Below, in pieces: positions 7,139-36,053 of a stretch of DNA of 64,000 bases (positions are counted from its first letter, which is position 1; every line of letters begins with the position of its first letter). The notes beneath the pieces were generated by a model that searched no databases, had not been told where the DNA came from, and worked only from the letters and a program-made list of their open reading frames with translations. This DNA comes from an uncultured Verrucomicrobiae bacterium. GTDB lineage: Bacteria; Verrucomicrobiota; Verrucomicrobiia; Limisphaerales; JAFGQR01. The stretch lies in contig CAWBHS010000090.1 in NCBI GenBank assembly GCA_963788655.1, positions 1 through 64,000 of the forward strand, given 5' to 3'. The position numbers and the translations under genes were made by a program.

Positions 7139-7932
7139 ATGAGCCCCAGCAAGCAGATCGGCCCGGAGTTCCAGGCGTTCGACTTCACGCACGGCCGGCG
7201 CACCTATGAGGTGTTCCGGGTGGTTCGGGGCCGGCGGTTCTCGTGCTCCACGAGATCCCCGGCCTGCATCCGGGCGTCATCGATTTCGCCCGGCGGCTGA
7301 TCGCCGAGGGGTACACCGTGTATCTGCCGTCGCTGTTCGGGCGGCCCGCAGCCCCGGCGAAGGGCCGCGAGATCGGGCGATCGGCCGTGCGGGTCTGCGT
7401 GGCGCGTGAGTTCACCAAGCTGGCGGACCGTACGAGTCCCGTGGTCGGGTGGCTGCGGGCACTCGCGGCGTCGGCCTACCGTGAGTGTGGCGGGCCGGGG
7501 GTCGGCGTGGTCGGGATGTGCTTCACCGGGGGTTTCGCGCTGGCGACGGCGCTGGAGCCGTCGGTCGTCGCGTCCGTCATGAGCCAACCGGCCATGCCCG
7601 CGCCGATCGGGAAGCATGGCCGTGCCGCCCTGGGCCTGGATGCCCAGGACCTCGCCACGATCAGGGCACGGGCGAATGACGACCTGCGGGTGCTCGGGCT
7701 GCGATTCACCAACGACAGGGGTTGCCCGCCGGAGCGGTTCGAGACCCTGCGGACCACGCTCGGAACAGCCTTCGAGGGGATCGAGATCGACTCGTCGCCG
7801 GGCAACGCGGCTGGCATCGAGCCCTCGGCGCACTCGGTACTCACGGTCTCCCTGGTCGACGAGCCAGGGCATCCGACCCGGGTCGCCCTCGACCGGGTCC
7901 TGGCGTTCCTGGCCGAGCGGCTGCGCCCTTGA
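7139..7932 (+). CDS. Dienelactone hydrolase family protein (frameshift near 7225)
   Basis: VLHEIPG, GYTVYLPSLFG, nucleophile motif GMCFTGG and AHSVLT. Confidence 0.9.
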
Positions 7933-8031
7933 ACGCCGTCGCGGCGTGAGAGCGAATCCAAGCCGGGCGGGATCCAGTGACCGATTCCATGATGGTTTAC
8001 TGCCGGGACTTCGAGTTCCGTGCCCGGGCCA

Positions 8032-8392: not shown

Positions 8393-10075
8393 TACTTGAT
8401 CGCGGGTGATCTCCTCGATGCGCCAAGTGCTGGCGCCGAGCATGATGTTGTCGCCGGGTTTGCTCTCGAACACCATTTCTTCGTCCAGTTCCCCGACCCG
8501 CGGCCCGCCGGCGCCGAGAAACACGCCGTAGTTGCCGCGATCGGGAATGGTCCCGGCGTTGAGCCGCGACACGATGGCGGCACCGCGGCGGGCGCTCAGC
8601 ACGTCGGCGCTGCGGTCCCAGGCCAGCAAGGGCCGCAGGTCGGCAAAGTCCGAGGACGGGTAATGTCCGGAAAGCATATCCAGCACCGAAGTGAACACGG
8701 CATCGCCCAATTGCCGGTACGGATGGGCGCGGCGCACCAGCGCGGCGATGTCGCCGACGCGGCGCGGCGTATCCACGCACAGGGCAACGATCTGCTGCGC
8801 CAGCACATCTAGGGGACTGCGGGGAATGTGCAAAGCTTCCAGTTCACCGCTTTGCATGCGTGCGGCGACCACGGCACATTCCAACAGATCGCCGCGGAAC
8901 TTCGGGTAAATCCGACCGACGCTCACCGCACCGACGTGGTGGCCAGCGCGACCGACCCGCTGCAGGCCGCGGGCCACGGAACCGGGCGATTCTACCAGGA
9001 TCACCGCGTCCACCGCGCCCATGTCGATGCCCAGTTCCAACGAACTGGTGGCGACGATGCCGCGCAGGCGACCGGCCTTCAGCCCTTCTTCGATCTCGGC
9101 GCGCTTTTCGTGGGATACGCTGCCGTGATGGGCGCGCACCAGCGGCTCTGCGGCGAGTTCATTGAGATGTTGCGCCAGGCGCTCACACAAACCGCGACTG
9201 TTGACGAAAATGATGGTCGACTGATTGGCGCGGATCGCTTCCAGGAGTTGCGGATACATCGCCGGCCAGATTCCGCGCTGCATCGGTGGCGTGCCCACTT
9301 CACGTGCATACAGTTCTCCGAGAATGGAACCGCCCCGCTTCGGTTCCGGCTGCACCCGCACCCGTTCCATGTCCGGCACCGGCACCACCACTTGCAGATC
9401 CAGTTGCGGCGGCGCGCTGGCATCGACGATCTCCACGTCCCGGACTCCGCCGAGAAATCGCGCTACTTCATCAAGGGGGCGCACCGTCGCCGACAAGCCG
9501 ATGCGCTGCGGTTCGACTTCGGTCAACTCCACCAGTCGTTCCAATGACAACGCCAGATGCGCACCGCGCTTGTTGGGCGCCAGGGCGTGCACTTCGTCGA
9601 CGATCACCGTATGCACGGTTTTGAAGTTGTCCCGTGCCTTGGAGCCCAGCAACAGGAACAACGATTCCGGCGTGGTCACCAGAATTTCGGCCGGGTCCTT
9701 CGATTGTTGGTTACGTGCTTTCTGCGGCGTGTCGCCGGTGCGCACATCCACCCGCGGCAACCGCAAGTTCAATCCCAACCGTTCGGCACTGCGCTGCACG
9801 CCCATCAGCGGTGCACGCAGATTGCGATCGACGTCGTACACCAGCGCCTTCAGCGGCGAGATGTATAACACCCGCACGCCCGGCTCCGCGTCCTGCTGCA
9901 ATTGCGCCAGCCGATCGATGGCGTGCAGAAACGCGGCCAGTGTCTTGCCGCTGCCGGTGGGCGCCACCAGCAGTGCATGGGCGCCGCTGGCGATGGTCTC
10001 CCAACCGCGGTGCTGCACGTCGGTTGGCGCGGTGAAGTTGGCGTCGAACCAGGCACGGGTGGCGGCGGTGAACAT
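8393..10075 (-). pseudogene. lhr: N-terminal ~560 aa of an Lhr-family DEAH helicase, truncated at the junction
   Basis: APTGSGKT, YISPLKAL, TTPESL, DEVH, GLSAT, HHGS, ATSSLELGIDMG, QRVGRAGH, GTIPDRG; stops abruptly after WRIEEITRDQV. Confidence 0.9.
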
Positions 10076-33676: not shown

Positions 33677-33755
33677 CGTCGACTTCACGGACATATCCAG
33701 CCCTCGCAAGGTGATGTGACGGCGAGTATTAAAGCTGATTTGTACAAAAAATTAA
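33677..33755 (+). repeat. ~78-bp imperfect direct repeat, copy 1
   Basis: CGTCGACTTCACGGACATATCCAGCCCTCG...ATTAAAGCTGATTTGTACAAAAAATTAA, matched by 34543-34619. Confidence 0.85.
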
Positions 33756-33792: not shown

Positions 33793-34134
33793 TCAGGACT
33801 GCGGGTCGAACTGGAAGACGCGCAGTTCCTGGTCGCAGCGGCAAGCCTTCGCGATGCGCGCGGCCCACGCGATGGCGTCCTCACGCGAAGACAACTCAAG
33901 TATGGTGAAGCCGCCGTTGAGCGGGGGCGCCCAAGCATAGCCGCCCTCCGCGACCGCACCGTTGGCCGATACGAGCGCAGGCGGTATGTCTTCGTCGATG
34001 CCGCCGCCAAAGACGTAGACCCCAGCGGCTTTCGCCTCGTCAATCACGGCGTGCGCGTCGCGGCCCACCTCCTCCCACTCGCTGTCCGGCACGACCATCG
34101 CCGCGCTTGGAAAGGAGATCAGGTACTTTGCCAT
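33793..34134 (-). CDS. YciI family protein, cassette-like
   Basis: AKAAGVYVFGGG, GGFTILELSSREDAIAWAARIAKACRCDQELR; preceded by a GTTAGGC core at 34190-34184. Confidence 0.85.
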   Translation of the reverse strand: MAKYLISFPSAAMVVPDSEWEEVGRDAHAVIDEAKAAGVYVFGGGIDEDIPPALVSANGAVAEGGYAWAPPLNGGFTILELSSREDAIAWAARIAKACRCDQELRVFQFDPQS

Positions 34135-34183: not shown

Positions 34184-34215
34184 GCCTAACGCCCAGGATG
34201 TGCGACGCCGGTCAC
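34184..34215 (-). repeat. Right half of an attC site (L'-R')
   Basis: Minus strand GTGACCGGCGTCGCACATCCTGGGCGTTAGGC ends in a GTTRRRY core directly upstream of the yciI-like gene. Confidence 0.6.
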
Positions 34216-34259
34216 CGACCTATCAAGAATAACCGTGTCGGAGTCAATCTAGTTCTAAT

Positions 34260-34342
34260 ATTAGCGATTAATCCTCTCTGACTCGGTTTTTCTTCCGGTT
34301 TTTCTTCAAAATTAGCGGTTAATCCTCTCTGATCCGATTTTT
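34260..34342 (+). repeat. Two ~32-bp tandem REP-like copies
   Basis: ATTAGCGATTAATCCTCTCTGACTCGGTTTTT (34260-34291) and ATTAGCGGTTAATCCTCTCTGATCCGATTTTT (34311-34342). Confidence 0.8.
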
Positions 34343-34542: not shown

Positions 34543-34619
34543 CGTCGGCTTCACGGACGTATCCAGCCCTCGAAAAGTCAAGAACGGCGGGGATTAAAGC
34601 TGATTTGTACAAAAATTAA
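34543..34619 (+). repeat. ~78-bp imperfect direct repeat, copy 2
   Basis: CGTCGGCTTCACGGACGTATCCAGCCCTCG...ATTAAAGCTGATTTGTACAAAAATTAA. Confidence 0.85.
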
Positions 34620-34720
34620 TCCTTCTTTATATTTTCGCCGAGCCCAGAAAAGCTGCTCTTGAAGGTTACCCCAGATGCTCGGAGGATCCACTCAGCCGTC
34701 CTTGGCTGGTTGCTTCAAAT

Positions 34721-34810
34721 ACTGGATTGCAAGACCTGACCCCGATGCCCTGCAGCGATCGCCCCCGCCAAAACCGTGGTCTGTTCCCGATTGTTCTTCG
34801 CCGATTGTTC
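34721..34810 (+). repeat. REP-like motifs interrupting the attC of the first cassette
   Basis: ATTGCAAGACCTGACCCC (to 34743), AAAACCGTGGTCTGTTCCCGATT (34770-34792) and duplicated CCGATTGTTC (34787-96, 34801-10). Confidence 0.6.
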
Positions 34811-34814
34811 GCGC

Positions 34815-34821
34815 GTTAGGC
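34815..34821 (-). repeat. attC inverse core (R'', GCCTAAC) of the first cassette
   Basis: GCCTAAC lies 8 nt after the stop codon and is the exact complement of the GTTAGGC at the cassette start. Confidence 0.7.
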
Positions 34822-34829
34822 CACCTCGA

Positions 34830-35747
34830 TCAGAACGGAATATCATCATCGCTAAACTCAGAATGAAAGCTCTTTCCGTATCCCAACTCATCCAAATCAA
34901 GATCGTCATCGATATTCAGGCCGCAAAACTCACAATGAATCAGACGAACGAATTCGCCGGCCACCACCCTCTCAGCGCTGTCGACATCGAAAACATAATC
35001 AGGCTCCGCAACCAATACCGCCCGCTGGTTGCACGCGGGACACGTCGTTTCATATCGGTGTTCCGATTCGAGCCGTTCATCAGTAACCGCCTCGCTGCGT
35101 CGCACCGCCTCCTCATCTTGTTTGGTTGCCTCCCAGTTACTTCTGTGTTCCTCCAGCTTGAGGCGAAGGATGTTCTTGCTATCTTGCTGATAATTTCTGG
35201 CGACATCGATAACGTTATTCTCACATGCTCCGAACCACTCCTTGCGAGAGTTCCTAAGTTCATCGGCAAAATCGATCGTGATGAAGTAGAAATCTCTCTT
35301 CAGTAGGACCATCGCCTTTTCGACGTCGAATAGCGCAAGGTCGTGGTGTGCAAGGACATCGCGCAGATTAGAGAGTCCGAACAGACGATTCTTATTCTTT
35401 TGGGCGGATTCGGAGACCGCCGCAGCTCTAAGTAGGGAATTACGGAAGGTAATAACGTCCGCTTGCGGTGTTTTTGCCAAGATAGTCTTGTTGTCAGCTC
35501 CGTCGACGATTCTTTGCCCGTATAACACTCGCAGTGAATGGCGGAATTCGGGCGACACAAGAACGTAGGTAGGATTTAGATCGTAGAGAATGCCCTTTAA
35601 TACTCTCTCCATGCCAATGGCGAAGTTCAGAATCGCCTGAATTGTGTCGATGCGGCTCATATCCTCTGCGATGCGGGAAGCGCATTCCTGCAAGAAGAAA
35701 CGAGCGCTATCGATGAATGGGTTGTGTTTCACTTTGGTCACATTCAC
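34830..35747 (-). CDS. Predicted HEPN-domain protein with a C-terminal Zn ribbon and SSB-like tail; gene cassette
   Basis: AILNFAIGMERVLK, RDVLAH (RxxxxH), CPAC...CEFC and terminal EFSDDDIPF; AT-richer than flanks; intact ORF. Confidence 0.7.
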   Translation of the reverse strand: MNVTKVKHNPFIDSARFFLQECASRIAEDMSRIDTIQAILNFAIGMERVLKGILYDLNPTYVLVSPEFRHSLRVLYGQRIVDGADNKTILAKTPQADVITFRNSLLRAAAVSESAQKNKNRLFGLSNLRDVLAHHDLALFDVEKAMVLLKRDFYFITIDFADELRNSRKEWFGACENNVIDVARNYQQDSKNILRLKLEEHRSNWEATKQDEEAVRRSEAVTDERLESEHRYETTCPACNQRAVLVAEPDYVFDVDSAERVVAGEFVRLIHCEFCGLNIDDDLDLDELGYGKSFHSEFSDDDIPF

Positions 35748-35800
35748 GCCTAACAATTATTGAACGTCTCAATCGCCATATAAAACCGACGCCGAAATCG
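35748..35800 (-). other. attI-like recombination site (no integrase adjacent)
   Basis: GGTTTTATATGGCGATTGAGACGTTCAATAATT-GTTAGGC immediately before the cassette ORF; AT-rich and non-palindromic, with no RYYYAAC partner within normal attC length. Confidence 0.5.
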
Positions 35801-36053
35801 AAACTTGATTGGAATCCCCAATCGGCTCAGCCATCTTCGTGACCTTGCTAATTTATTATTTGCCGGAAATATACCTCAATTTCGCCGTATAACAAATTGA
35901 AGCGTCGATTTGCGTTGTTAATGTAGTTATGAGGCTGAGCGCGCTTGGTAAAAAGCGCTTTAGAGTAGGTAGTTAACGAGAGAAGCAGTTGAAGCGCATG
36001 CGCAAGTACCGCGTCTTGATTTTAGTACAATCGGTAATGCGCCCTGGCTGGGT

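Follow-up and report, generated by a model that had tools for sequence, protein, structure and literature searches.

The window analysed here, a stretch of 64,000 nucleotides (nt) from contig CAWBHS010000090.1 of an uncultured Verrucomicrobiae bacterium (assembly GCA_963788655.1), carries on its minus strand a gene that joins a predicted HEPN domain to a four-cysteine zinc ribbon and a C-terminal tail resembling the tip of SSB, the bacterial protein that binds single-stranded DNA. On balance we lean towards the view that its product is a self-contained HEPN RNase effector, borne on an integron cassette, whose SSB-like tip docks on the proteins that partner SSB. The gene is the sole cargo of a cassette that appears to circulate in a gammaproteobacterial-type pool and that now lies, in the genome of a soil Verrucomicrobiota bacterium, within an islet of low GC. 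The parts of the gene that bear on this reading are listed below.

34830..35747, minus: the HEPN, zinc-ribbon and SSB-like-tail gene (stop codon 34830-34832)
35247..35729, minus: HEPN domain, residues ~5-165 (P0002 numbering), with a low-confidence insert at 62-95
35607..35609, minus: codon of E45, which is part of the motif GMERVLKG and does not vary across the family
35346..35363, minus: Rx4H motif RDVLAH (R127...H132), R and H invariant in 119/119 relatives
35058..35246, minus: helical linker, residues ~166-228, three helices running from the HEPN domain to the zinc ribbon
34887..35057, minus: four-Cys zinc ribbon, C234-P-A-C237...C270-E-F-C273, three long strands and a short helix
34833..34886, minus: disordered acidic tail, residues ~286-303, with a predicted local distance difference test score (pLDDT) below 50 at 299-303
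34833-34859 and 34833-34850, minus: tail-end codons of EFSDDDIPF (nine) and DDDIPF (six), respectively

Predicted fold, family and conserved residues

On the minus strand an open frame of 308 codons, free of lesions, runs from TTG 35756 to the stop codon (34830-34832). The TTG is probably not the start because it overlaps the cassette core site, and one of two GTG codons is the likelier choice: GTG 35747, which yields the 305 amino acids (aa) of the initial annotation, or GTG 35741, which yields the 303 aa of the database gene call (P0002). The open reading frame (ORF) has a GC content of 0.49-0.52, compared with 0.64-0.70 in the flanking genes for a DUF2254 protein and an ATP-dependent DNA ligase. 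The initial annotation had described an intact, AT-richer ORF with a set of named motifs, and this description holds: the frame is open throughout, GC lies below both flanks, and AIGMERVLKG, RDVLAH, CPAC, CEFC and the terminus EFSDDDIPF are all present. Comparison with an 85%-identical metagenomic relative (L026) gave a dN/dS of 0.089 (dS 0.82, dN 0.073); the gene is under purifying selection.

The structure was modelled using AlphaFold2 from a 25-row alignment (mean pLDDT 80.5). The model is helical to residue 224, followed by a three-stranded ribbon at 229-269, with low-confidence stretches at residues 62-95 and 299-303. A Foldseek search against the PDB placed the MntA-HepT HEPN toxins at the top (6m6u_H, E 0.22, probability 0.99, TM score 0.65 on the target), with the sacsin HEPN domain and Csm6 among the lower matches. 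VIA-align, which is independent of Foldseek and compared 48,161 representative chains, returned the following top chains, given with their VIA-align values.

7ae2_A, HEPN toxin: 10.7 (root-mean-square deviation 2.9, 125 aligned)
2hsb_A, HEPN domain protein: 10.4
1ylm_B: 10.2
5yep_B, SO_3166: 10.1
8xdj_A, AMPylated HEPN toxin: 9.8
1wwp_B: 9.7
4nqf_B, HEPN domain protein: 9.1
3o10_A, sacsin HEPN: 8.6

Five of these eight chains carry HEPN in their title; 1ylm_B, 5yep_B and 1wwp_B we take to be HEPN or DUF86 proteins. Csm6, the AbiA HEPN domain and HepS appear further down, and all listed matches fall on model residues ~5-165. Both searches thus recover, on the predicted structure, the four-helix up-and-down HEPN fold that had been proposed from the sequence motifs. 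At the level of sequence profiles, the window protein matches no curated Pfam HEPN family at E <= 10, while seven of 119 family members give sub-threshold matches to HEPN_RiboL-PSP over the Rx4H region, the best of them scoring 18.9 bits against PF18735 (gathering cut-off 28.4 bits).

A word-indexed search yielded 25 relatives of the window protein, and phmmer against 1.84 billion cluster representatives (50% identity) yielded 174 at E <= 0.001, including 48 at E <= 1e-30, most of them ~300 aa long and alignable end to end. Its neighbours in the ESM Atlas belong to unnamed clusters only, and the BFVD viral structures gave nothing at E <= 0.001. For the family alignment, 12 word-search relatives were combined with phmmer representatives of 255-345 aa; the first 120 of 126 candidates were used and P0103 was dropped as a partial match, leaving 119 members. 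Mean column identity across this alignment is 23%, and five residues (E45, R127, H132, P235 and C237) are invariant in all 119, with G43, K49, N56, P57, C234, C270 and C273 kept in at least 90%. Since they are conserved across the whole alignment, the E...Rx4H set and the four Cys define the family, and the joint conservation of Rx4H and the four Cys that was anticipated for homologues is found family-wide. The HEPN active site is completed by a conserved polar or acidic residue upstream of Rx4-6H, and E45, judged from the alignment, is a good candidate for that residue. A mostly Bacteroidota subgroup of nine loci (L012, L013, L031-L036 and L040) has a longer C-terminus with extra Cys pairs, ending in a conserved ...C..C(D/E)EYYGTEN; this end may be a second zinc-binding module that replaces the acidic or SSB-like tip.

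The C-terminal domain is, on the evidence of its model, a generic four-Cys ribbon with a long hairpin. The family profile gave a weak match to the N-terminal zinc ribbon of MqsA (3ga8_A, E 0.029, residues 230-286); sub-threshold matches to Lar_restr_allev were seen in 43/119 members at E <= 1, and to MqsA_antitoxin in 3/119. The four Cys and the long beta-hairpin are common to the MqsA and Lar ribbons, all matches being below curated cut-offs. Folded alone, the last 133 residues reached a pLDDT of 72, and structural searches with the C-terminal model returned no convincing neighbour.

The SSB-like tail

The tail has the form of the SSB C-terminal motif (SSB-Ct): a disordered segment leads into an acidic run, and [ILV]PF closes the chain. 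Within the 25-row alignment, the 17 full-length relatives at >= 51% identity all end in IPF, one row is truncated, and the seven relatives at <= 39% identity have other endings. Fourteen of the 17 IPF tails are exactly DDDIPF and the others are DDGIPF, EGDIPF and DEEIPF; the 50%-identity representatives add just P0027 and a 44-aa fragment to the IPF clade. In a maximum-likelihood tree of 130 rows, from each of which the last 12 residues had been cut beforehand and from which the near-duplicate P0013 and the truncated P0019 were left out, the 17 IPF rows fall on one side of a branch with SH-aLRT support of 100. Because they form one clade, a single origin of the IPF tail is indicated.

The tail linker varies in length and sequence, but 13 of 18 tails have F at position -7, and the segment after the ribbon is acidic family-wide (median length 28, median net charge -5, 92 of 127 at -4 or below). 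At six loci, namely the window, the Methylomagnum locus L010 and L026-L029, the IPF peptide is unchanged and its codon differences are synonymous only (Ile ATT/ATC/ATA; Pro CCG/CCT/CCC/CCA; Phe TTC/TTT). The 8.96-Mb genome has 53,768 stop-to-stop frames that reach 80 aa or more, and just two of them, the SSB gene and this ORF, end in [DE]3[ILVMF]PF. The tail had been expected to be conserved among homologues; this is borne out across the clade, through synonymous codon changes, and fails for the relatives at <= 39% identity, which lack the tail. Within the gene's own clade, these patterns support a conserved and selected tip that, by its sequence, is of SSB type.

The host's own SSB differs at the tip. 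The genome has a single match to PF00436 (SSB), on contig C62, and this protein ends in DDDVPF; the host SSB query and its nearest homologues among the matches listed all end in VPF (120/120 sequences), and the named homologues are from Verrucomicrobiota. The named members of the IPF clade are from Methylomonas, Methylomagnum and a gammaproteobacterial metagenome-assembled genome (MAG), and the Methylomagnum MAG that holds L010 encodes two SSB paralogues ending in ...DDFDDDIPF and ...DDSYDDDIPF. The difference between IPF and VPF tips indicates that the tail carries the signature of a proteobacterial cassette pool and not that of its present host. In the Bacteroidota hosts of distant relatives the SSBs end in ...DLPF, an ending that their HEPN proteins do not copy.

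Cassette boundaries and genomic context

The features flanking the ORF are as follows.

35748..35754, minus: GTTAGGC, a GTTRRRY-type core site forming the cassette's 5' boundary; the TTG codon ends on the first G of this site
34815..34821, minus: GCCTAAC, a RYYYAAC-type core site 8 nt past the stop, complementary to the 5' GTTAGGC
34620..34814, minus: expected position of the rest of the attC, with no attC-like hairpin (DNA fold z 0.27)
34543..34619 and 33677-33755, unstranded: direct repeat of ~79 nt, whose two copies here (86% identical) are the sole ones in the genome
34365..34484, plus: relic of an IS110-family transposase C-terminus, 331-450 nt beyond GCCTAAC
34184..34190, minus: second GTTAGGC, 49 nt upstream of a small ORF (34134->33793)

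Homology at the DNA level between the window and L026 (83% identity) is confined to 35776 -> 34815, and homology to both L026 and L029 stops exactly at the GCCTAAC site. These two loci have the same GTTAGGC/GCCTAAC pair; L027 has GTTAGGT/ACCTAAC, and L028, for which no 5' flank is available, has the 3' core site. In L026, L027 and L029 the 5' core site precedes the start by 10-19 nt; overall, the distances of the core sites are 2-19 nt on the start side and 8-9 nt on the stop side. The L029 gene sits between two nearly identical attC hairpins (DNA fold z -5.6 and -5.7). With the core sites so close to both ends of the ORF, this single protein is all that the cassette encodes, and a partner gene would not fit. 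Among the 33 non-IPF loci a post-stop site was found in L037 and L042 only, and none of 14 non-IPF chromosomal genome loci (mostly Bacteroidota) has one.

The next cassette in L026 (1286-2050, plus strand), downstream of a ~60-nt attC-like site GCCTAAC...GTTATGT, encodes a 254-aa DEDDh exonuclease (RNase_T family, E 9.3e-14). In L010 the gene lies between two sequences of ~70 nt (7850-8000 and 8960-9030), each the inverted repeat of the other, for example CTTACGGGTTAA / TTAACCCGTAAG, and adjoins a ParE-type toxin-antitoxin (TA) pair. By sequence this has the look of an array in which the attC-like sites are similar and the cores non-canonical.

Around the window copy, little of an integron was found. 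The stretch at 34620..34814 has no homology to the attC of L026, and no integron integrase above the TIGR02249 cut-off is encoded on the 197-kb contig (C90). Our regular-expression-and-fold scan for attC sites returned none on C90, which is weak evidence, as the scan is strict and found only one site near the genome's integrases. Elsewhere, integrase matches above the TIGR02249 cut-off are present on C59 (66134-68710), C49 (288364-289293) and C69 (40024-40947), two of them with an in-frame stop, and the genome's own 93-nt attC family occurs on C59 (62405-62497), C39, C9, C49 and C7, with no copy on C90. Given these integrases and attC copies on other contigs, the host does have integrons elsewhere. 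Upstream of the gene, a 297-nt AT-rich spacer without an ORF (35757-36053) separates the cassette from the ligase gene; its final ~29 nt before GTTAGGC resemble the matching stretch of L026 and the remainder does not. No complete attC fold was found in this spacer, and an Rfam scan of the window gave no match.

On the other side, BLASTP of the IS110 relic against the IS110 transposase of L013 (355 aa; residues 317-351) gave 40% identity over 40 aa (E 5e-4). The relic is flanked by repeats confined to this place in the genome, and together these features suggest that decayed insertion sequence (IS) insertions separate the HEPN cassette from the ORF that follows; an attC-targeting IS may have been what broke the attC of the window copy. 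The ~79-nt repeat was weighed as a candidate attC but set aside, since RYYYAAC/GTTRRRY ends are missing from it and the genome has no third copy; it may be the end of an IS. Two 35-nt repeats in tandem were also seen (34257-34291 and 34308-34342). The second GTTAGGC and the R'' site form a 9-nt inverted repeat, GCCTAACGC/GCGTTAGGC, 633 nt apart. One might guess that GCCTAACGC...GCGTTAGGC are the halves of one IS-split attC, though the inner boxes do not pair; the second GTTAGGC may either close off the broken attC on its far side or mark the border of the next cassette. The small ORF beyond it (33793-34134, minus strand) encodes 113 aa with a host-like GC of 0.64 and a weak YCII match (E 0.009), and may be a second stranded cassette. 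Searching a plasmid database with the IS-relic region gave no match, and comparison of the 5.4-kb region with 20 relatives gave no meaningful DNA match and no view of an empty insertion site.

We also inspected the neighbourhoods of relatives. Across 15 genome loci there is no conserved neighbour gene. In 12 of the 15, by a raw and qualitative count, TA, restriction-modification (R-M), Dnd, HEPN, PIN, helicase, MutS or transposase genes lie within three ORFs. The types seen include TA (ParE, PIN, MNT-HepT), type I R-M, Dnd-associated genes, HEPN_Swt1 with DUF5343, PIN_12, SF1 helicase, MutS_V and transposases. These neighbourhoods lend qualitative support to a conflict-system setting.

Proposed function, alternatives and known systems

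How such a protein might work can be sketched as follows. On its own it would be held inactive, like other single-protein HEPN effectors, with the acidic tail and zinc ribbon serving as the regulatory and sensing part. The SSB-like tip would plug into the pocket in which SSB-partner proteins read SSB. Docking could place the RNase at sites of single-stranded DNA (ssDNA) processing or, alternatively, capture of the tail by a host or invader SSB-binding protein could free the RNase; cleavage of RNA would then halt growth in the manner of abortive infection or of a toxin. We infer RNase activity, autoinhibition, tail binding and a role in defence, and regard an anti-phage bait function as plausible. 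A more specific version, which we consider unlikely, is that the tip is an integrated decoy, the RNase firing when an SSB-hijacking protein of an invader takes the tail for host SSB. Phage RecT/Redbeta-type annealases and other phage proteins that read the SSB-Ct would be the candidate triggers; RecT and Redbeta are reported to couple to the host SSB-Ct (PMC13490951). If this were true, cassettes would be equipped with a single-gene detector for attacks on the hub of SSB interactions, and bacteria would have an equivalent of the integrated decoys found in plant immune receptors.

Several observations weigh against an SSB-docking, cassette-borne effector. The window protein has no match in Pfam, NCBIfam or PADLOC and no significant PHROG match (best E 0.009), and viral contigs carry a single relative, at 33% identity. 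Most family members lack the tail, so it is not essential to the core function of the family, and with a host SSB tip of VPF the IPF tail, going by sequence, may be imperfectly matched here. Promoter-like matches are in no excess, at 3 compared with 1.5 +/- 1.1 in shuffles. A search of sequencing runs for RNA evidence listed no RNA run with the sequence; one soil DNA run contained 0.22 of the words sampled. The claim that the gene is borne on a cassette stands for the core sites of the window and L026-L029 and for the attC hairpins of L029, and has to be qualified for the window copy itself, which from its surroundings appears to be a stranded cassette that has lost its integron context. No canonical core sites are present at L010, where the arrangement is a variant one that includes long inverted repeats, and no integron integrase above the cut-off was found in its MAG.

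It is possible, if not the account we prefer, that the copy in this window is a silent and recently landed passenger, which would be compatible with any function elsewhere. Its GC content below that of the flanks, the lack of an integrase on C90, the attC that is not intact and the adjoining IS110 relic are all in keeping with this, as are the VPF rather than IPF tip of the host SSB and the contrast between the gammaproteobacterial named relatives and the Verrucomicrobiota homologues of the host SSB. However, the ORF has no lesion and keeps all the invariant residues, the change of Ile to Val is conservative, and the 297 nt of AT-rich sequence upstream, with two weak sigma-70-like sites on the gene's strand, could hold a promoter. 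A different function is envisaged if the protein is a cis-regulated toxin that stabilizes cassette arrays, in effect a one-gene addiction module, in which the ribbon and tail neutralize the HEPN domain and the tip has no partner role, the tail being a mere acidic autoinhibitor or a turnover handle. Chromosomal integrons are rich in TA cassettes, the ribbon weakly resembles the toxin-binding N-terminal domain of MqsA (3ga8_A), tails are acidic family-wide and TA genes neighbour the gene in L010, L018 and L022. Yet generic acidity does not explain an exact terminal IPF in 17/17 relatives through synonymous changes, the F at -7 in common with donor-type SSB, or the fact that within this genome the motif keeps company with SSB only, and we therefore regard addiction as improbable.

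We give slightly less credence still to an accessory factor of nucleic acid metabolism, for which the tip would recruit the RNase to SSB partners located at forks, at gaps or on transferred ssDNA, and there it might process RNA (primers, R-loops or transcripts) or compete with SSB and so modulate the recombination of incoming DNA. Integron cassettes recombine as ssDNA, and the neighbouring cassette in L026 encodes a DEDDh exonuclease; the SSB-Ct is, moreover, described as recruiting genome-maintenance enzymes (PMC5872125, PMC3159472). Set against these points, the neighbourhoods vary and are made up of TA, defence or mobile elements, not of replication or repair operons, the gene is patchily distributed and carried on cassettes, and the HEPN Rx4H architecture is, according to a recent preprint, typical of toxins and immune effectors (10.64898/2026.02.22.705581). 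Least probable by far is that the HEPN domain is a ligand- or protein-binding module and not a nuclease, in the manner of the substrate-binding domains of nucleotidyltransferases, as E45, R127 and H132 are invariant in 119/119 and the cassette encodes no nucleotidyltransferase partner.

Single-protein HEPN nucleases are a growing class of immune effectors and toxins, and the question for each of them is how it is silenced and then triggered. An SSB-docking effector of the kind we favour would join the best-known docking peptide of bacterial DNA metabolism to a putative nuclease, kept under selection in a mobile-cassette lineage, and its tail would show whether the SSB interaction hub aims or triggers an RNase. 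In addition, the 174 representative clusters (50% identity) make up a family that has no name and falls outside curated libraries, and the analysis points to a cross-phylum cassette landing after which the tail still bears the SSB signature of the donor.

Of the families in PADLOC, PDC-S64 was matched by 14 of the 119 members at E <= 0.01 (best 4.6e-6), and nine of 110 members matched at E <= 0.001, colinearly, over residues ~76-246 against profile positions 61-213; the window protein itself matches no PADLOC family, PDC-S64 included. PDC-S64, which is presumably a predicted defence candidate, is of similar size (a 339-position profile) and is at most distantly related to the family; no mention of it was found in the searched literature. 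The HepT-MntA toxins rank first in the Foldseek search, but the protein described here is twice their size, with the ribbon and tail in addition, gives no Pfam HepT-like match, and comes from a one-ORF cassette with no room for an MNT partner.

Among effectors tied to SSB, the closest comparison is with DARNA, a single-protein effector with an N-terminal HEPN domain (R117x4H122) that is described as a tRNase activated by ssDNA bound to phage SSB (10.64898/2026.02.22.705581). The same preprint describes HEPN Rx4H domains as metal-independent RNases, usually dimeric and off until triggered. The family has no match to DARNA (PD-T7-3) or ApeA in PADLOC at E <= 0.01, and the C-terminus of DARNA is a large helical domain, whereas that of the window protein is a small zinc ribbon with an acidic tail. 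The available text of the DARNA preprint (10.64898/2026.02.22.705581) describes no copy of the SSB-Ct in DARNA, HepS or ApeA, whereas the present clade has one.

The likeness of the tail to SSB lies in a hexapeptide at the extreme C-terminus after disorder, with an F at -7 as in the Methylomagnum SSB ending ...DDFDDDIPF. The clade tip DDDIPF is identical to both Methylomagnum SSB tips and to the E. coli SSB-Ct (PMC5872125), a hexapeptide described as a docking and recruitment tag for genome-maintenance proteins (PMC5872125, PMC3159472). Unlike SSB, the carrier has no oligonucleotide-binding (OB) fold and no PF00436 match. Judged by titles and abstracts, the searched literature that names DDDIPF deals with SSB and its partners, with helicases or with phage SSBs; no protein of the HEPN or defence kind with an SSB-Ct ending was found there.

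Integron cassettes (BRiCs) are reported to encode phage defences (10.1101/2024.07.02.601719), and a Vibrio mimicus cassette with a HEPN AbiU2 protein to confer resistance to T4 and T7 (10.64898/2026.03.17.712381). The gene in the window resembles these in having a single ORF, GTTRRRY/RYYYAAC bounds and HEPN cargo, and differs from the V. mimicus cassette in that its HEPN family is a different one, with no AbiU2 match, and in that the window copy has neither attC nor integrase. The searched literature contains no description of the family, of its ribbon-plus-tail module or of the SSB-tip tag; in kind, the protein falls in with what is known of single-protein HEPN effectors tied to SSB or ssDNA and of HEPN defence genes borne on integron cassettes.

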